From assembly GCA_963711565.1 (NCBI GenBank), contig CAVQEQ010000004.1, positions 928,001 to 992,000 of the forward strand: a DNA stretch of 64,000 nucleotides, in the 5' to 3' direction. This document shows, piece after piece, positions 2,068 to 10,498 of the stretch. A program made the translations under genes and the position numbers. The stretch is from an uncultured delta proteobacterium (GTDB taxonomy: Bacteria; Desulfobacterota; Binatia; Binatales; Binataceae). The notes beneath the pieces were generated by a model. It had not been told where the DNA came from. It saw only the letters and a program-made list of their open reading frames with translations, and did not search any database. How positions within the stretch are numbered: the first letter of the stretch is position 1; each line of letters opens with the position of its first letter.

Positions 2068-2568
2068 TCAGCGTCGCCGGGTTGAGGGTTCTGTTTTATG
2101 CAAATAGGTCGTGAACCCATCGGCTGGAGGCGCGATCGAGTTTTGCATCATGATCAAGCTGATTTGTCCCCGATGGTATTCGCCGTGAACTGTCACGTGC
2201 ATCAGCATTTCTTCGCGTGACATGCGGCCCGGCAGGCCATCGGTAAAGGCAAAGTCGATACGCTCGGCCAACTGTGTTTCATCAAGACCTGAAACATAGT
2301 TGAGATACCACTGATCGCTGGTTTTGATCGCCGCGGACAGTTCTTCCAGCGATGGCGCCTGGCCTGGGTTGGGCGTCGTGTATCCGTGCTCGGCTCGCCG
2401 CAAGTTCGCAGCGAAGATGCGGTCGACAGCATAAGTGTGGTTGAGGACTCTGACGGCGATCTCCTTTGCAGGAGAGGCATTGTCAAATTGTCGCATTGCC
2501 GCAAGAATCTCGACGTTGGCCTTTGCCTTGTAGTTGAATACCCGTTCAAGCGTGCTGACTTGATCCAT
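2068..2568 (-). CDS. DinB/YfiT-like metal-binding protein
   Basis: Pattern YKAKAN...LNHTYAVDRIF...MHVTVHGEYHRGQI with three His ligands. Start set at ATG 2568. Confidence 0.88.
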   Translation of the reverse strand: MDQVSTLERVFNYKAKANVEILAAMRQFDNASPAKEIAVRVLNHTYAVDRIFAANLRRAEHGYTTPNPGQAPSLEELSAAIKTSDQWYLNYVSGLDETQLAERIDFAFTDGLPGRMSREEMLMHVTVHGEYHRGQISLIMMQNSIAPPADGFTTYLHKTEPSTRRR

Positions 2569-2599
2569 GTTCTTTCTCCCAATCCAGGTAATCACGCCA

Positions 2600-2643
2600 T
2601 GCCACGACATTTATCATTCGGCGCATCAGGGAAAATAGGTGTC
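2600..2643. repeat. Direct repeat R1, copy b; contains the last five codons and stop (DTYFP*) of the 514 aa membrane gene
   Basis: tgccacgacatttatcattcggcgcatcagggaaaataggtgtc. Confidence 0.92.
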
Positions 2644-4170
2644 GGCGGGCTTGCCATCGACGCCGGCGACGTTGCCCACGACGGGTCCTTCGCCGGGGGT
2701 CGCTACGCGGCCGAAGAGCGCTGCGGTTTGATCGCTATATAGTAGATGCCAGCGCGGGTCGTTCCTGACGAGGTCGGCTCCCTTGGTCTGTACGCCCATC
2801 AGCACGTAGTCGTGCGGATACGCGTCGAGCAGGGCCGCGGAGCCTTCCATCCCATAGAAGAATCTCGCGTAGTCGCCTTCCTGCTTGTCGGAATAAACCA
2901 GCTCGCCGCGCGGGTCGATATAAACCTTGAACGCGTCGCCCATGTGCCACAGCACCCACGAGCCCCATTCAAACTGCGGCAGGATGTTGCCGTGGAGGTG
3001 ATGTTCCTGCATGAAGGCGAGCGCGCCCGTCGGCATCGGCTTCCAGGTCTTGAGGCGATTCGAGAAGGTTCCACCGACGAGCGCGAGCGCAATCGCGCAA
3101 AACGCCATCAGCGCCGCCGGCGGTTCGCGGTCATCGGGCTGCGCGCCAGTCTTGAGCTCGGCGCCGCGCTCCAATGCCAGACTCGCGTGGCGCGCCAGCG
3201 GAATCGCGACTGCGATCACCCCGACGGCTACGTTGCGCGCGGCATAGAAGGCGGCGCCGATAAAGACTATCGCGACCGCGACCAGGGCCGCGTCGCCGAG
3301 CTCGGGAGCTATCGCAACCGCCGCGACGAATCCGGCAAACATCAGCATCGGCGCGACGTACTGCAGCAACTCATTCGGGGAGGTCCGCCAATTCGACAGC
3401 ATCATCGTCAACAGCGGCACCCAATCGGCGATTACTTGTCGAATCAGCGGGTCGCCGACCGAATGCGCGACTCCAGTCCACAAGCCGACGCCGAACGGAT
3501 TGATAAGCGTGGCCGCCGCGCATCCAAGCGTGATCAATGCGAGCCGCCACGCCGCCGCGATGCGGCCGGCGTCGCCTAACCACCCCTGGACGAACATGAC
3601 CGCGGCCGCGATTCCGATTGCGCCGAGTCCGACGATGTAGCCGCCGTGAAAGTTGGCCCACAACGCGAACATCGGGATCAGCGGCCACAGGATCGCGCGC
3701 CCGCGGTAAGCCTCGATCGCGAGCGCCATCATCACGACGCTCATCATCATGAAGGTGAAGAGCTGCGGTCGAAATTGCATCTGGGTCGAGATCGCGACGG
3801 CGCTGAGAATCAGCGTGATCCTTTGCACTCGGGCCGCGGCGCCGGTGGCGGAAATACCGATCGCCAGCGCGATTATCAGGATGCTCGAGCAGATCAGCTT
3901 CAGGAGCTTGAGGCCGAACACGCCGAGATGCGCATAGCAGAAGGCCAGCGCCACCTGCGACAGCCATTCGTGATTGTGCCACGGCATATTGGCCGCGGCG
4001 TAGGAGTAGGTGTCGAAGCGCGGAATATGGCCGGTGCGCAGAGTCGTCTGGCCGGTCAGCATGTGTATCCACAGATCCGGCTCGGCGAAGTTGTCAGCCG
4101 TCGCGAGCGCGATTGAAAGGATCACCGTCCATCGCGACGCGGAAAGCAACGAGTAGCGCTGATTCTTCAA
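2626..4170 (-). CDS. Polytopic membrane protein, probable GT-C fold glycosyltransferase
   Basis: Acidic first loop EPDLWIHMLTG, WHNHEWL, RPQLFT, LWANFHGG, many TM helices, C-terminal soluble domain with YIDPRGELVY. Confidence 0.7.
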   Translation of the reverse strand: MKNQRYSLLSASRWTVILSIALATADNFAEPDLWIHMLTGQTTLRTGHIPRFDTYSYAAANMPWHNHEWLSQVALAFCYAHLGVFGLKLLKLICSSILIIALAIGISATGAAARVQRITLILSAVAISTQMQFRPQLFTFMMMSVVMMALAIEAYRGRAILWPLIPMFALWANFHGGYIVGLGAIGIAAAVMFVQGWLGDAGRIAAAWRLALITLGCAAATLINPFGVGLWTGVAHSVGDPLIRQVIADWVPLLTMMLSNWRTSPNELLQYVAPMLMFAGFVAAVAIAPELGDAALVAVAIVFIGAAFYAARNVAVGVIAVAIPLARHASLALERGAELKTGAQPDDREPPAALMAFCAIALALVGGTFSNRLKTWKPMPTGALAFMQEHHLHGNILPQFEWGSWVLWHMGDAFKVYIDPRGELVYSDKQEGDYARFFYGMEGSAALLDAYPHDYVLMGVQTKGADLVRNDPRWHLLYSDQTAALFGRVATPGEGPVVGNVAGVDGKPADTYFP

Positions 4171-4216
4171 CGACGTGCGAGTGAATCACCGTCGGCGCGC
4201 GTCCGCAATAGCTCAT

Positions 4217-4278
4217 GCTTTCGCCGACTCCATCGCGCCGGTAATCTAGTCGCGTGAAATCTCTGGTAATCTGCGGCG
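4217..4278. repeat. Direct repeat R2, copy a (62 bp); putative promoter and first codons of the GT87 gene
   Basis: gctttcgccgactccatcgcgccggtaatctagtcgcgtgaaatctctggtaatctgcggcg matches 8503-8564 at 57 of 62 positions. Confidence 0.93.
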
Positions 4279-5543
4279 ACTCGGGTGCTGCGTCGAGTCC
4301 GGGCGTCGCTGGAGCGAACGGCTCCCCCTCTCCGAGCCGGGCGCGGGCTTTCGTCGATGCGTTCAGAGAGGCACCCTGGATCACCGCCGATCGCGTCCGC
4401 GGCTACTCGAGGCTCATGTGCGTGTGCTACCTCGCACTGTTTGTCGCCTGGCTGGTGCTCAGACCGGGCGGAGTCATGGCGACGTTGCAGCCGGTCGGTG
4501 GCGACTTTCCGCCGTTCTGGACGGCTTCCTCCCTGGCGCTCCAGGGGCATCCCGCGGCAGTTTACGACCACCGTAAGCTGGACGCCGCCGAAAAGGAGGT
4601 GCTGCGCGACAAAGATCCGGGCTACCAGCCTTTCGTGTACCCGCCCATGTTCCTCGTAATAGTGCTCCCGCTAGCACTGCTTCCGTACAACGGCGCACTG
4701 ACCGCCTGGACACTGGTCGGACTGACGGTCTATCTGACCGTGATGTGGAAGATCGCGCCTCGGCGTGACGCGCTATGGCTGGCGCTCGCGTTTCCCGGCG
4801 CCCTGGTCACGATTCTCGACGGACAGAACGGCCTGGTAACGGTGGCGCTGTTCGGCGGCGGATTGCTGCTGCTCGAACGGCGCCCTTGGGTCGCAGGCGC
4901 GCTATTCGGACTCCTCTGCTACAAGCCGCAGTTCGGAATTCTATTGCCACTAGCTTTTGTAGCAGCGCGGCAGTGGCGAGCTGCTATCGGCGCGGCGCTG
5001 GTGGTCGCCGCGTTCGCCGGGCTCTCGGCGACGCTATTCGGAGTGGAAACCTGGCGGGCATTTCTGGACGGCATCCCGTTGGCGACTCGGAGCATGCTGG
5101 TGCAGGGCGACGTTGGCTTCGGCAAGATTCAAAGCATCTTCGGCGCGGCGAGACTGTGGGGCGCATCCGTCGCTGTGTCTTACGCGATGCAAACCGTGGT
5201 CAGCGTACTCGCTACGGGCGCGGTGCTGTGGGTATGGCTCAAACCCTGTGGGTATCCTGTCAAAGCCGCGGCGTTGGCCACCGGGACCCTGTTGGTCACG
5301 CCGTACCTGCTCGACTACGACCTGGTGTTGCTGGCACTGCCGATCGCGTGGCTGTCGTGGGACGCCGTGCACTCAACATTCCTGCCCTGGGAAAAATCGC
5401 TCCTGTTTTTCGTATGGCTATTTCCACTGTTCGCGCGAGTGCTGAGCTTGCTCGCGCATCTGCCTTTGACGCCATTGGTTCTCGCGATGTTGTTGCTTGC
5501 CATTGTCCGGCGCGGTGTGGCGGCGAAAGCAATGTGCACCTAG
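4254..5543 (+). CDS. GT87/DUF2029 family membrane glycosyltransferase
   Basis: Motifs GGDFPPFW, FVYPP, GQNGL, YKPQFG, TPYLLDYD; polytopic. Confidence 0.88.
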   Translation: MKSLVICGDSGAASSPGVAGANGSPSPSRARAFVDAFREAPWITADRVRGYSRLMCVCYLALFVAWLVLRPGGVMATLQPVGGDFPPFWTASSLALQGHPAAVYDHRKLDAAEKEVLRDKDPGYQPFVYPPMFLVIVLPLALLPYNGALTAWTLVGLTVYLTVMWKIAPRRDALWLALAFPGALVTILDGQNGLVTVALFGGGLLLLERRPWVAGALFGLLCYKPQFGILLPLAFVAARQWRAAIGAALVVAAFAGLSATLFGVETWRAFLDGIPLATRSMLVQGDVGFGKIQSIFGAARLWGASVAVSYAMQTVVSVLATGAVLWVWLKPCGYPVKAAALATGTLLVTPYLLDYDLVLLALPIAWLSWDAVHSTFLPWEKSLLFFVWLFPLFARVLSLLAHLPLTPLVLAMLLLAIVRRGVAAKAMCT

Positions 5544-5610
5544 CAATTCAGAGCTTTCGTGATACAGAACTGTTGGATTGGGTGGCGAAAACTGAAATCA
5601 CCCCGATCTC

Positions 5611-6351
5611 TCAAGATCGTCTTCGTGCGACCAGCAACAGTGAGACTCCGAACGGCACGGAGATATGGCCGCCGAGCGCGTATCGCTCGCTCGAGAACAC
5701 GGTTCGCAGGAGCGAGTTGACAACACCGGAATGGTTCCGGAGGTCGTGTTCGTGCTGCGGACTTGATTTGCGCAGGCGGCCTAGCAGGCGCGCCGCCGCG
5801 ATCGGCGGGAACAGCAGGAAGTTGTAGTAGCTGAGATAATCCACGTCGAATCCGGCGCGCTCGAAAAGCGTGCGGAGCTCGCCTGCCACGTAGCGTCGTT
5901 GATGGTGATGGGTGGCGTCATGCGCGCTCCATAAGAAGGGGAAGGCCGGGACGGTTGCCAGCAGCCAGCCGCCCGGCTTGAGCCGCTGGCGAAGCACGGT
6001 CAGCGTTTCCGCGTCGCGATCAAGATGCTCCAAAACGTCGGTCATCACCACCAGCTCGAAGCTGACATTCTCAAACGGTACTTGCTCTGGCAGTTGGCCC
6101 TGCCGCACTATCGCAGTTTTTCTGGCGCTGGAAAATTTGCATGCCTCGAGGTCGGAGTCCATCGCGTAGACCTCGCCGAAGCGGCCCAACATGGCAAAGT
6201 TGCCGCCGGTGCCGCAGCCCGGCTCCAGAATTCTGGCGCCTGGGGACAAGCCCAGGCGCGAGATCACGCTCGCAACAATCGCCCGGCGGGAACAGAACCA
6301 CCAGTGACTGTCTTCGATTTGCGCCATCAGCGGATAGAGCTCGGAATCCAC
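5611..6351 (-). CDS. Class I SAM-dependent methyltransferase of the type often found beside gtrB
   Basis: EDSHWWF, LEPGCGTG, DVLEH, TVPAFPFLWSAHD, HQRRY. Confidence 0.88.
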   Translation of the reverse strand: MDSELYPLMAQIEDSHWWFCSRRAIVASVISRLGLSPGARILEPGCGTGGNFAMLGRFGEVYAMDSDLEACKFSSARKTAIVRQGQLPEQVPFENVSFELVVMTDVLEHLDRDAETLTVLRQRLKPGGWLLATVPAFPFLWSAHDATHHHQRRYVAGELRTLFERAGFDVDYLSYYNFLLFPPIAAARLLGRLRKSSPQHEHDLRNHSGVVNSLLRTVFSSERYALGGHISVPFGVSLLLVARRRS

Positions 6352-6354
6352 GCG

Positions 6355-7377
6355 TCAGGGGCGATCTTCGTACTGCTCGAAGCCGTGCGCCTCGCGCAAG
6401 AGATAGAGCGGACGATGTTTGACCTCGGTATAGACCCGGCCCAGGTATTCCCCAATAACACCCAGAGTGATGAGCTCAATACCGGCCAGAAACAACACGA
6501 CTACCATCAATGAGGTGTAGCCGGGAACGTTGATTCCGCGCGCGAGCTTGAACACTGCGAGAAAAAGCGCATACGCAAAGGCGAGGATCGAGATGACGAC
6601 TCCGACGTAGCTCCAGATCTTTAGCGGCAACGAACTGAACGAAGTGATTCCGTCGAGCGCAAAATTCCACAGCCGCCAGTACGTCCACGCGCTACCCCCG
6701 GCATTGCGTCGCTCGCGTTCAAAGCTCAGCTCCGTCTGCTTGAAGCCGACCCATGCGAACAGCCCCTTCATGAACCGCGAACGTTCGGGGAGCCGTAGCA
6801 GAGCGTCGACCACTCGTCGGTCGAGCAGACGGAAATCTCCTGCGTTGGGCGGAATCGGAACCTCGGAGACAGCGTCGAACAGACGGTAAAACATGCCGGC
6901 GGTCAGCCGCTTCGCGAGTCCGTCACCAGGGCGCATATGTCGCGTCGCATACACCACGTCGTAGCCAAGACGCCATTGCGCGACCATCTCCTCGATGAGC
7001 TCGGGGGGATCCTGCAGGTCACAGTCGATGGGGATGACCGCCGCGCCGCAGCTATGTTCGATGCCGGCGCTGAGCGCCACCTCTTTGCCGAAATTGCGTG
7101 AGAAGCTCAAGATTTTGAGCTTGGGATCTTGAGCCCGCCGCTCAATTAGGCGGGCCAGGGTTTCATCCGTGCTCCCATCGTCAATGCACACGATTTCGTA
7201 ACTGATCGCCAGACGTTCGAGCACCGCGAGCAGCCGCCGGAAGAACTCATCGAGGTTTGCAGCCTCGTTATAGATCGGAATCACGATTGAGAGTTTGACC
7301 CGCGATTCTCCAAACTGATCCGCGGCTGTGGGTCTCCCGCTCGCAGAATCCTGATCGGTATTCACGCTCTTGCGCAA
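6355..7377 (-). CDS. GT2 polyprenyl-phosphate glycosyltransferase (GtrB/YkoT-like); start uncertain
   Basis: IPIYNE, DDGSTD, SRNFGKE, DCDLQDPP, GDFRLLDR, two C-terminal TM helices, IGEYLGR. Confidence 0.92.
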   Translation of the reverse strand: MRKSVNTDQDSASGRPTAADQFGESRVKLSIVIPIYNEAANLDEFFRRLLAVLERLAISYEIVCIDDGSTDETLARLIERRAQDPKLKILSFSRNFGKEVALSAGIEHSCGAAVIPIDCDLQDPPELIEEMVAQWRLGYDVVYATRHMRPGDGLAKRLTAGMFYRLFDAVSEVPIPPNAGDFRLLDRRVVDALLRLPERSRFMKGLFAWVGFKQTELSFERERRNAGGSAWTYWRLWNFALDGITSFSSLPLKIWSYVGVVISILAFAYALFLAVFKLARGINVPGYTSLMVVVLFLAGIELITLGVIGEYLGRVYTEVKHRPLYLLREAHGFEQYEDRP

Positions 7378-8387
7378 CGAGTCCTCGCCGTACGTACGAT
7401 CAAAATAGAGACTGTCGTAACCGCGACGCCAGCAATCATATCGACCAGGTAATGATGTCCTGCGAATGGAATAGCCACCAACATCAGTGCATTCAGAATA
7501 GCGACCGGCACAAAGCTTCGAAGCGGCGGGCGATTGACGTAGACCACGAGAACGGCGATGACAGTGTGAAATGACGGGAACGAGACGACCCCGGTCATAC
7601 TACCCAGCGCGAACTTCTGCAAACTACCATCGCGTAACGTCAGCAGCACCGCCGACCACCGCGGCATCCCGCCTTTGCCGTATGGACCGAGAGCCGGAAA
7701 GAGTCCCGACAGCGTGATGGTAATTAATCCCGATAGAATTCCAATCCACAGCAGCTCCCGATTTCGGTCCCTGCGTTTGATCGCCGCGAAAAAGGCAGTC
7801 AACAGCAACACCTGGATGATCGTGTTGTGATAGGCGTGTTCCAGTATGGATCTGAGCCATGGGCTCAATGCAGTAATCCAGTCGAAACCCGCATTCCAGT
7901 TAAATCCCAGCGCCGCGTCCGCCCGCGCGAACTGAGAATCCCACAGCGGCATTCGAAGAGTCGCGACCGCGTAGCTAAGAATTTCGAGCGCGACAAAGAA
8001 CCCTATCCACAGCGCGCAATAGTGCGCCGCCTCCGCCACTCGCGGGGCGCGTCGGCTGTAGTCGATCAGGAATCCGAACGCGGCGAACATGGCGACCCCT
8101 TTGACCACCGGCATCAATCCACTGATCTCGAACCCCGCGTGCCAGGCCCATAGCCAGTCGATCGATGCTAGCGTCAGTATTACCGCCCACGCTCTGAGGA
8201 TGTAGTCGGGGTCGTCGAGAAATTTCCGCGACACGTTCGCACTCGTCCGTGATGCGATGTTCAAGGACTCTGCCGCGGTCTCCGGGTATTCGGATATCGC
8301 CGCGGCGGGATCGATATTCGTGCTCTTTTGCAATGACTCTTCGCCTCGCTCCCGAACCTTGGACGCCGACGTGCCGATGGTGAGCAC
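7362..8387 (-). CDS. PAP2-superfamily membrane phosphotransferase (inositol phosphorylceramide synthase/Aur1-like subgroup); start may lie further downstream
   Basis: FPALGP, SFPSFH, GHHYLVDMIAG and several TM helices. Confidence 0.8.
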   Translation of the reverse strand: MLTIGTSASKVRERGEESLQKSTNIDPAAAISEYPETAAESLNIASRTSANVSRKFLDDPDYILRAWAVILTLASIDWLWAWHAGFEISGLMPVVKGVAMFAAFGFLIDYSRRAPRVAEAAHYCALWIGFFVALEILSYAVATLRMPLWDSQFARADAALGFNWNAGFDWITALSPWLRSILEHAYHNTIIQVLLLTAFFAAIKRRDRNRELLWIGILSGLITITLSGLFPALGPYGKGGMPRWSAVLLTLRDGSLQKFALGSMTGVVSFPSFHTVIAVLVVYVNRPPLRSFVPVAILNALMLVAIPFAGHHYLVDMIAGVAVTTVSILIVRTARTRCARA

Positions 8388-8502
8388 TTACTATGCCAGA
8401 ATCGCCCCGGCCAAAAAGCCCTTATCGAACTTTGACCTCCGGCGAGTTCGCCACGGTCTCGATCCTCTCCCATGTTGCATCGACGCAACAAACTCGGCAC
8501 GC

Positions 8503-8564
8503 GCTTTCGCGGACTCAATCGCGCCGGTAATCTAGTCGCGTGAAAGCTCTCGTAATCGGCGGCG
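8503..8564. repeat. Direct repeat R2, copy b; putative promoter and first eight codons of thiO
   Basis: gctttcgcggactcaatcgcgccggtaatctagtcgcgtgaaagctctcgtaatcggcggcg. TAATCT lies 6 nt before the GTG start in both copies. Confidence 0.93.
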
Positions 8565-9682
8565 GCATAATCGGCAGCTCGGTCGCGTGGCGGCTCGCGT
8601 CCGAGGGCGTCCAGGTCTCGGTCTTCGAGCGGGGGCGTCTCGGGCTTGAAGCCTCATGGGCGGCGGCCGGACTCATCGGCCCTCAGGCCGAGGCGCACGA
8701 GCCCGGCGTATTCTTCGATCTCGCGCTGGCCGGCAAGCGCTCTTTCGACGCCGTCGTCGATCGCCTCACGGCCGAGAGCGGCGTCGATCCAGAGTACGAT
8801 CAACACGGCGTGCTGTACGTCGCATTCGACGATAGTGCGCGCGCCGAATTGCAGTCGCGTGCGCGATGGCAGCGTGCGGCCGGCGGCAACGTCGAGGAAC
8901 TGTCGCCGCGCGAGGCTTTCAAACTCGCGCCGGTGCTCTCGGAAAAGATCGTCTTCGCGCTGCACCTGCCCAACAATCGGCGCGTCGAGAATCGCAAGCT
9001 GACCCTTGCCTACATCAACGCGGCGACCCACGCCGGCGCAGACTTCCGTGAAGGCGCCCGCGTCAATTCGATCGCAATCGAAGGCGCGCGCGCCACCGGC
9101 ATCCGCCTCGCCGACGGCTCGCTCGAAAGCGGCAACGTCATCATCAACGCGGCCGGCGCATGGGCCGGCGACATTCGCGGCCTCGAAGACGATCGCATCC
9201 ACGTCTATCCGGTGCGCGGGCAAATCCTGTGCTTCGACGCGCGTCCCGGCCTGATCGGTCCCTCGATTTTTTCCAGCGCTGGAATATTGGTGCCGCGGCG
9301 CGACGGGAGAATCCTCGCCGGCTCGATTTTCGAGGAGGCGGGCTTCAACAAATCCGTCACGCTCGACGGGATGGAGCGAATCCTGCGCGCCGTGCGTGCG
9401 ATGGTCCCGTCGATCGCCTCCATTCCCTTTCGCGAAGCATGGGCTGGACTGCGCCCCGCCAGTGACGACCTGCTGCCGGTGCTGGGCCCGTCGCCGACGG
9501 TCGCGAACGTCCTCTACGCGGCCGGCCACTTCCGCAGCGGCATCCTGCTCTCCGCACTGACCGGCGAAGTGATCGCAGATCTTGTCAAAGGGCGTCAGCC
9601 CCCGATCGATCTCGCGCCATTCTCACCCGCACGCTTCCGCAACGGCGCCGCGCACCCGGTAAAGCTCGCCGACATGATATGA
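8540..9682 (+). CDS. thiO: Glycine oxidase ThiO-like FAD oxidoreductase
   Basis: GGGIIG dinucleotide fold, ASWAAAG, PVRGQ, WAGLRP, GHFRSGILL. Confidence 0.85.
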   Translation: MKALVIGGGIIGSSVAWRLASEGVQVSVFERGRLGLEASWAAAGLIGPQAEAHEPGVFFDLALAGKRSFDAVVDRLTAESGVDPEYDQHGVLYVAFDDSARAELQSRARWQRAAGGNVEELSPREAFKLAPVLSEKIVFALHLPNNRRVENRKLTLAYINAATHAGADFREGARVNSIAIEGARATGIRLADGSLESGNVIINAAGAWAGDIRGLEDDRIHVYPVRGQILCFDARPGLIGPSIFSSAGILVPRRDGRILAGSIFEEAGFNKSVTLDGMERILRAVRAMVPSIASIPFREAWAGLRPASDDLLPVLGPSPTVANVLYAAGHFRSGILLSALTGEVIADLVKGRQPPIDLAPFSPARFRNGAAHPVKLADMI

Positions 9683-10041
9683 GCCGCACCGTCGCACTGG
9701 GATTGATCCGCGACTTATTCTTCCGCGCGAAGATCGACGCGGTCGCCGCCGCCGTCGGCGCCGAAGTCGAGTATGTTTCATCGCTCGACGCCATAGCCGC
9801 GCGATGCGCCGCGACGCACCCCTCGATCATATTCACCGACCTCTCCGACGCGACGTTTCCCGCGCTCGACACACTGAAGCAAATCCGCGCCGCCGCTCCC
9901 GGCGCGCGCGTCATAGGATTCGCCTCGCATGTGGATCTGAAATCCTTGAAAGCCGCGCGCGACGCCGGTTACGAGCTGACGCTCTCGCGCAGCGAATTCA
10001 CCGCCCAACTCCCGGTCTTGCTGAAAGCGTCGACGCGCTGA
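9679..10041 (+). CDS. Stand-alone atypical receiver (CheY-like) domain protein
   Basis: DLFFRAKI, IIFTDL, IGFASHVD, ARDAG. ATGA overlap with the thiO stop. Confidence 0.7.
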   Translation: MSRTVALGLIRDLFFRAKIDAVAAAVGAEVEYVSSLDAIAARCAATHPSIIFTDLSDATFPALDTLKQIRAAAPGARVIGFASHVDLKSLKAARDAGYELTLSRSEFTAQLPVLLKASTR

Positions 10042-10095
10042 CTTTCAGTTATCCCCCTCCGGCGGGCTCGCTAATCGCTGCGCCGGAGCCGTCCT

Positions 10096-10126
10096 CTAAC
10101 CCCTGTCCCTTCTGAGGGGGAACAGG
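10096..10126. repeat. Degenerate extragenic palindrome (CTAACCCC...GGGGAAC type)
   Basis: ctaacccctgtcccttctgagggggaacagg resembles 16530-16558. Confidence 0.45.
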
Positions 10127-10498
10127 AGCGATGCAGCGTATGCATCATCCTGCAATCTCTTCACGCGCAAAGCCAATAAATGCATCTGTGTGCATATATG
10201 TGATATGAAAAGAGAGAGAAAAGTTATTTTCGAGAGACTTGCAATCTTATAGCGACATTGATAAGTACTCGCTCGGTTCACCCAAGCCTGTGGTTTCACC
10301 GAGGTCGCAACGACCTCAATGAGCCAAACGACATAGCCGTTTCCAAATGAAGTGACTGCTCACTTCTTCGAAAAACACGACGAGCAGCCGGAGGTGGATG
10401 TGTGCCCGCGCGTTCAGAGAAAGCGCAGGCGCCGCGGAACAGCCTCGCCCGCGATTGCGCGCAAACGAAATCGAGCGGCAGGGCAAAGGAGTCAGGAT

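Follow-up and report, generated by a model that had tools for sequence, protein, structure and literature searches.

Direct repeats that flank accessory genes, with a single copy at the empty site, are familiar from integrative elements bounded by attachment (att) sites and from the target duplications of insertion sequences (IS). A repeat of this appearance, 62 bp long, brackets four genes upstream of the glycine oxidase gene thiO in an uncultured soil delta proteobacterium of the Binataceae (assembly GCA_963711565.1), within the 64,000 nucleotides of contig CAVQEQ010000004.1 (positions 928,001 to 992,000) that we call the window and to which coordinates below refer. We favor, with moderate confidence, the interpretation that this repeat is not the end of a mobile element but the scar of one-sided recombination (homologous at one end, illegitimate at the other) between members of the genus, at a hotspot without an integrase. 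Unlike att-flanked elements and IS, the thiO locus has no tyrosine recombinase nearby and no fixed repeat length, and its content and junctions vary among relatives.

The closest described process is homology-facilitated illegitimate recombination (HFIR), known in Streptococcus pneumoniae, Acinetobacter baylyi, and Pseudomonas stutzeri and, rarely, in Escherichia coli (PMC3240628). The thiO locus resembles HFIR in pairing one homologous end with one illegitimate joint, in the loss of recipient sequence on insertion, in short or absent microhomology, and in the lack of a dedicated enzyme; it differs in that HFIR comes from selected laboratory crosses whereas the thiO events are deduced from natural alleles, and in that its joints sit at gene starts, where they make promoter stubs and fusions (PMC3240628). 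A second parallel is offered by the C-terminal displacement of Rhs and VgrG proteins and the effector-immunity arrays of the type VI secretion system, with which the locus shares serial one-sided replacements and orphan gene ends (PMC5361080, PMC8125069), as well as tandem copies that are not sisters, by a sister test like that of PMC5361080. The thiO locus differs in holding housekeeping and envelope genes rather than toxins, in that the displaced pieces are mostly promoter-bearing 5' ends, and in that the stub is predicted to be reused for expression of the cargo (PMC5361080, PMC8125069).

Putative mobile promoters form pairs whose identity averages 92%; the survey that described them covered positions -150 to -50, filtered out copies reaching coding sequence, and called the mechanism unknown (PMC3575422). 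The thiO repeat likewise consists of two copies of a promoter region, about 92% identical, before unrelated genes, but 4.3 kb separates these copies, the start codon belongs to them, and the history of their alleles can be traced (PMC3575422). At 62 nt and 92% identity before the GT87 gene and thiO, the pair falls within the limits of that survey (at least 50 nt, at least 80% identity, unrelated genes), but with 37 of its 62 nt non-coding it lies outside the surveyed positions. Hotspots free of mobile elements show the same fast gene turnover between core genes with no integrase, their alleles being proposed to spread by double homologous recombination in the flanks; this accounts for spread but not for new junctions or repeats, the step that the thiO scars record (PMC5635113). 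In Haloquadratum, shorter repeat-bounded indels have been interpreted as deletions (PMC3119063). The literature within reach of our search, which took in few subscription papers, held no description of this locus, of "N-terminal displacement," or of displacement of housekeeping 5' ends with hand-over of a promoter.

The two copies of the repeat (4217-4278 and 8503-8564, forward strand) are identical at 57 of 62 positions without a gap and have a GTG at the same offset (4254 and 8540), with TAATCT 6 nt upstream, as a preliminary description of the window had observed. The best 62-base window in eight triplet shuffles of the first 10 kb reached 36-38 matches. BLASTN searches with both copies found only these two in the 4.84-Mb genome; a dispersed multi-copy element, which would be incompatible with the duplication proposed in that description, is ruled out. 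Because an 8,886-base contig from an independent study (run X2) spans 3230-10199 with 129 differences, the arrangement is not an assembly artifact. The left copy comprises a predicted -35 element (TTTCGC, 4219-4224), 17 nt, a predicted -10 element (TAATCT, 4242-4247), the GTG at 4254, and thiO codons 1-8 plus one base; the right copy has its predicted hexamers at 8505-8510 and 8528-8533 and the true thiO start at 8540.

Between the copies lie genes for a GT87-family membrane glycosyltransferase (4254-5543, forward strand; 429 amino acids, Pfam GT87), a class I S-adenosylmethionine-dependent methyltransferase (5611-6351, reverse strand), a GT2 glycosyltransferase of the GtrB/PgfS/ArnC type (6355-7377, reverse strand; under the curated cut-offs of those NCBIfam models), and a PAP2_3 family protein (7362-8387, reverse strand). 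The methyltransferase gene accompanies the GT2 gene, elsewhere in relatives as well; PAP2 is the alternative neighbor of thiO in relatives and falls outside the GT87-methyltransferase-GT2 block. The right-hand core gene is thiO itself (8540-9682, forward strand; 380 amino acids, above the TIGR02352 cut-off), and to the left lies a gene for a membrane protein of 514 amino acids (2626-4170, reverse strand), which is divergent from thiO at empty sites. We presume from the families that GT2 loads a sugar onto a lipid carrier and that GT87, or perhaps the 514-amino-acid protein, transfers it to a surface acceptor.

The thiO locus was compared in 45 of the 46 other genomes of the genus (designated by G numbers, G000 being the genome under study), G008 having no orthologue. 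An empty site of the kind foreseen in the preliminary description, with the 514-amino-acid gene divergent from thiO and directly adjoining it across one promoter copy, is present in 22 of the 45. PAP2 stands directly upstream of thiO in eight, with neither GT87 nor repeat, and GT87 lies beside thiO in six, every one of which has the left copy (7/7 with G000). Five relatives carry extra 514-amino-acid paralogues and four have no such gene. These alleles are scattered over the thiO tree and over a lysC tree of the 30 best-scoring of 45 matches, implying repeated loss or exchange.

Colinearity of the genome under study with the empty allele begins at 2599 and ends exactly at 4278 (G025, G033, G007, G020, G003, G011); colinearity with the PAP2 allele begins at 7385 and reaches about 9,700-10,050 (G009, G021, G028, G034, G032). 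The left edge of the repeat is therefore the end of allele homology, at the -35 element, and its right edge the GT87 joint. The left copy runs leftward into the empty-site allele of relatives and the right copy into their PAP2-thiO allele; since each copy has the surroundings of a different pre-existing allele, target duplication in a single event is not required. A one-sided scar has a pre-existing allele on one side and a new joint on the other, and this is what is found. The same allele counts bear on the proposal that GT87, lacking a promoter of its own, came under that of thiO through tandem duplication, in the manner of the citrate example from E. coli, with deletions later shortening the extra copy. 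Duplications are known to bring about promoter capture (cited in PMC3575422), but here the trimming deletion would have to recreate exactly the junction of the 514-amino-acid gene with the promoter that is the plain allele of 22 relatives; we disfavor this explanation, which can hardly be correct.

The PAP2-side allele is marked by a palindrome, TGTTGC-N6-GCAACA (8473-8490), conserved on the PAP2 side in 12 genomes (relaxing the pattern gives 15 matches in the genome); it is a candidate regulator site whose spacing resembles that of the CRP/FNR family. The empty alleles of G067, G025, and G062 may reflect deletion between repeats or replacement. In contigs of the same species, patches of raised divergence occur in the 514-amino-acid gene, the 5' part of PAP2, and thiO, with GT87 nearly invariant in run X1, a pattern compatible with exchange between lineages.

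The joint between thiO and GT87 can be read closely. In the open reading frame translations, GT87 starts MKSLVICG and ThiO starts MKALVIGG, which the preliminary description had taken to mean that the GT87 N-terminus is a decayed copy of that of ThiO; this holds, as residues 1-8 are thiO-derived, in frame, and replace about five native residues, the remainder being native. Orthologues of GT87 elsewhere (G002, G067, G017) begin with MKVxI, and the stretch corresponding to residues 9-30 is already present in them; thiO thus supplied only eight codons, and the suggestion that GT87 homologues would lack the first 30 or so residues is rejected. The VKALVIGG sequence is exact in 35 of 46 thiO genes and altered in all five fused copies, and we predict that the eight codons are tolerated passengers. 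Read from the left GTG, the fused frame is uninterrupted in G000, G036, and G029. A second type of joint occurs in G001 (L031) and G013 (L036), where the stub stops after 3-4 codons and the native GT87 start is retained; the thiO GTG there opens a frame of 17-18 codons whose stop overlaps that native start, and translational coupling made by the joint is possible. The GT87 frame of G069 (L100) passes through the right promoter copy and ends just before thiO. A sequence search of the PDB with GT87 gave no match.

The repeated unit has the character of a promoter. A pattern of two hexamers, TTTCRC-like and TAATCT-like, separated by 17-18 nt, was present before thiO in 42 of 46 genomes and also in all seven left copies, which keep the hexamers and a 17-nt spacing while the spacer bases and codons 3-8 drift. 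On the strength of this conservation, the unit is predicted to act as a promoter plus start in both copies, consistent with the earlier suggestion that the duplicated segment keeps both genes expressible. The GTG follows the -10-like hexamer by 6-7 nt in 32 of 49 promoter copies, and leaderless transcripts are therefore predicted. When promoter copies were ranked by similarity, the copy's own partner came only 12th to 37th of 48 in five of the seven two-copy genomes. One clade (L048 G031, L050 G034, L051 G014, L052 G002) has a longer thiO leader and tandem start-region repeats of GTGAAAA type.

Two further scars lie within 2.5 kb of the block. One, 1.6 kb from the left copy of the 62-bp repeat, is a 44-bp repeat on the reverse strand. 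Its first copy (2600-2643) comprises the end of the 514-amino-acid gene plus the leader of a Cys/Met lyase gene, of the short-leader allele type; its second copy (1961-2004), of the long-leader type, precedes the gene for the Cys/Met pyridoxal phosphate-dependent lyase (787-1944). Between them is a DinB-family gene (2068-2610, reverse strand; probable start near 2568 by comparison with G067). The first copy runs on into the lyase gene at its short-leader start, matching G022 at 50 of 58 positions and its own partner at 42 of 58. The junction of dinB with the promoter is present in G067 with the upstream copy absent, and G007 and G003 have other cargo at this site, with a common downstream junction but unequal cargo lengths and repeats of 106 and 59 bp. 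Cargo at the DinB site differs among G007, G003, G036, G032, G062, and G067, and G003 has RHS-repeat-like frames there. A GC-rich repeat at 2007-2041, beside a 44-bp copy, resembles repetitive extragenic palindromic sequences and has dozens of copies in the genome.

The 514-amino-acid protein has no Pfam or NCBIfam match; its look-alikes in the Atlas are mostly from Binatota and of GT-C type, a lead only toward a GT-C-like assignment. The family has many paralogues in the genus, and the last codons of its gene overlap the repeated unit before the lyase gene. Tandem 514-amino-acid genes in G027 and G069 are not sisters (sister relation rejected, p-AU 4e-5 and 6e-8, with test groups picked after inspection of a preceding tree), and the joint between the tandem genes of G027 holds a stub of the lyase gene start.

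The remaining scar, presumably an older one, is an orphan piece of PAP2 5' sequence (7354-7389, reverse strand) that forms the start region of GT2. This piece agrees with the 5' region of the G021 PAP2 at 32 of 36 positions and with that of the adjacent PAP2 (8310-8345) at 28 of 36, and about 3-4 bases are shared at its joint with GT2. GT2 is joined to the PAP2 promoter and 5' end also in G036, G013, G068, and one contig; G001 retains the native upstream region of GT2. In the genome under study the stub persists before GT2, behind a complete PAP2 gene, and since it is nearer to G021 than to that gene, the complete PAP2 likely arrived later, from another lineage. The methyltransferase-GT2 pair is also carried by G017, at a different locus, and by metagenome contigs, with neither GT87 nor thiO, and GT87 is found at other loci with its own start. 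The preliminary description had proposed that all four genes entered in a single insertion; this does not stand, given the eight relatives with PAP2 directly adjoining thiO, the native homes of GT87 and of methyltransferase-GT2 elsewhere, and the captured PAP2 piece with which GT2 begins.

These joints also bear on the idea that a piece of donor DNA, with the cargo, the promoter, and a shortened thiO start, became a circle through illegitimate joining and then integrated through one crossover in a short shared segment, which would give the same end structure by another route. In E. coli, such recircularized donors left duplications of 109-950 bp and were about 10 times more common than true one-sided recombination (PMC3240628). 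The route suits variable repeat lengths and foreign copies, but at thiO it requires a crossover within about 60 bases at 92% identity, and native 5' sequence has been lost at the GT2 and GT87 start joints, which insertion with deletion explains better than pure addition. We regard the recircularized donor as a rather unlikely route, though one to be taken seriously.

Lineage-mixed repeat pieces are seen in the PAP2 piece, the 44-bp scar, the tandem 514-amino-acid genes, and five of seven promoter pairs; the 62-bp pair and G001 are ambiguous. Varied repeat lengths, one old and one new junction, foreign-like orphan pieces, and the lack of a nearby tyrosine recombinase together fit one-sided recombination.

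Readings based on mobile elements fare less well. The preliminary description noted that no integrase is adjacent, and indeed no tyrosine recombinase (Pfam PF00589) was found within about 119 kb, the distance of the nearest match, in a search that did not take in serine recombinases or transposases. A decayed or trans-mobilized integrative element, with the repeats as attL and attR or as the ends of a circulating unit that recombines through them, would account for direct repeats with a single-copy empty site, and another scar in the genome, of tRNA-like sequence, does enclose an integrase remnant. A fixed core with fixed ends was not found among the seven carriers: the repeat ends and cargo vary, content and both junctions differ between genomes, and repeat length runs from 35 to 62 bp at thiO and is 44, 59, or 106 bp at the DinB site. 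Neither an excision joint nor a restored empty site was found in contigs from 8 of the 22 listed runs, contigs that drop rare variants and derive mostly from shallow runs. We consider an integrative element very improbable. An IS or composite transposon does not match the locus either, as the duplication is 62 bp long, the block is not enclosed by any of the 25 longest inverted repeats, and the four genes encode enzymes.

From the repeat, the alleles, the native starts of GT87 and GT2, the conserved motif, and the non-sister tandem copies, we infer the order of events, the recombination route, and the transcription as follows. DNA from a congener would pair at one end through a shared gene, either thiO, the presumed homology anchor for incoming DNA, or the 514-amino-acid gene, and would be joined illegitimately at the other. 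A joint falling just inside a gene start would leave a promoter-plus-start stub fused to the cargo, with a second promoter copy before the intact gene. The locus was likely built stepwise, GT87 and methyltransferase-GT2 coming from other loci, GT87 being joined to thiO codon 8 and GT2 to a PAP2 5' end, with full PAP2 re-entering later. An existing promoter and start codon were likely handed to the incoming GT87, and the left stub is predicted to give it a leaderless transcript. Finished alleles would probably spread across species by ordinary recombination in the flanks. Scars likely coincide with promoters because selection keeps only those events that leave core and cargo genes expressed.

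Self-BLAST of the genome found 23 direct repeats with two copies each, 28-400 bp long and no more than 40 kb apart; many coincide with gene starts or stops as called by a crude predictor. Two of the 23 lie in the window, and 10 of the 21 others were searched in five genomes. The same scar geometry recurs at the 5' end of an amidohydrolase gene, where the cargo-to-gene junction occurs with no upstream copy in G007 and G067, and at the 3' end of a gene that we take to be rne. Six of the 10 pairs were uninformative or unfit for simple insertion, and one encloses an integrase remnant. This remnant lies between the copies of a 92-bp repeat at G000:C1:157685-160660 (L111), which by eye resembles the 5' portion of a serine tRNA gene together with the sequence preceding it. 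At C3:1316670-1319371 (L121) and C3:1102339-1103763 (L120), duplicated gene starts lend a neighbor's N-terminus to unrelated frames.

Several observations weigh against one-sided recombination. No donor allele, with GT87 beside thiO and the left copy lacking, was found among the seven GT87-thiO genomes, nor was the right junction of G001 seen without the left copy in any relative. The 39-base promoter units of the genome under study are mutual first and second best matches at 35 of 39 positions, by a margin of about one base; this is about the level of orthologous promoters, and the sequence alone is thus no proof of foreign origin. No microhomology was seen at the thiO-GT87 joint, where HFIR would lead one to expect 3-10 bp at most joints. 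The left-GTG frame is broken in G068 and G069, assemblies that have frameshifts in neighboring genes too. A sigma-70 scan with the E. coli consensus reported neither promoter copy. A recA motif is present and ComEC-family matches occur in 46 of 47 genomes of the genus, but ComEC was also matched in 10 of 14 control genomes and so is no proof of competence. Elsewhere in the genome, a clean single-copy empty site was found for only two of the 10 pairs, the rne 3'-end pair and that at C1:1021826, and the latter, identical at 124 of 125 positions, fits self-duplication. G001, finally, retains the native 5' end of each of GT87 and GT2 and has a 52-bp repeat (48/52) whose partners rank first and second, which suggests that a true duplication may have founded the arrangement.

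Many of these points would be explained if a single insertion, of the kind in the preliminary description but without PAP2, had duplicated 50-60 bases of the recipient around GT87-methyltransferase-GT2 by template switching or staggered break repair and later exchanges had modified the result. The intact cargo starts of G001, the ranking of partner copies in G000 and G001, the 124/125 scar, and the missing donor allele for the first step all favor it. It leaves unexplained the foreign-looking orphan pieces at two neighboring scars, the PAP2-allele context of the right copy, and the non-sister tandem genes, and can hold for the founding event only; as an account of the locus we judge it unlikely. 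The first duplication may have arisen by either a one-sided event or a true duplication.

One-sided recombination, as favored here for the thiO locus, would be neither a new element nor a new enzyme, and the type of event is already known. The spread of alleles is understood, whereas natural genomes have yielded little documentation of how new junctions and duplicated promoters arise. With three scars in 7 kb and about 45 congener alleles, this step becomes testable, and the value of the locus lies in an unusually readable natural record of how genes and expression signals are gained at integrase-free hotspots. It also cautions that direct repeats around accessory genes are not necessarily attachment sites or true duplications. 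We suggest only tentatively that the genus as a whole routinely gains genes by one-sided recombination at ordinary gene promoters and ends, leaving two-species pseudo-repeats of 36-125 bp, handing over promoters and leaderless starts, and creating new N-termini or short start-coupled upstream frames. If this is true, such "N-terminal displacement" would be a counterpart of Rhs evolution and would give part of the unexplained duplicated promoters of bacteria a concrete origin.

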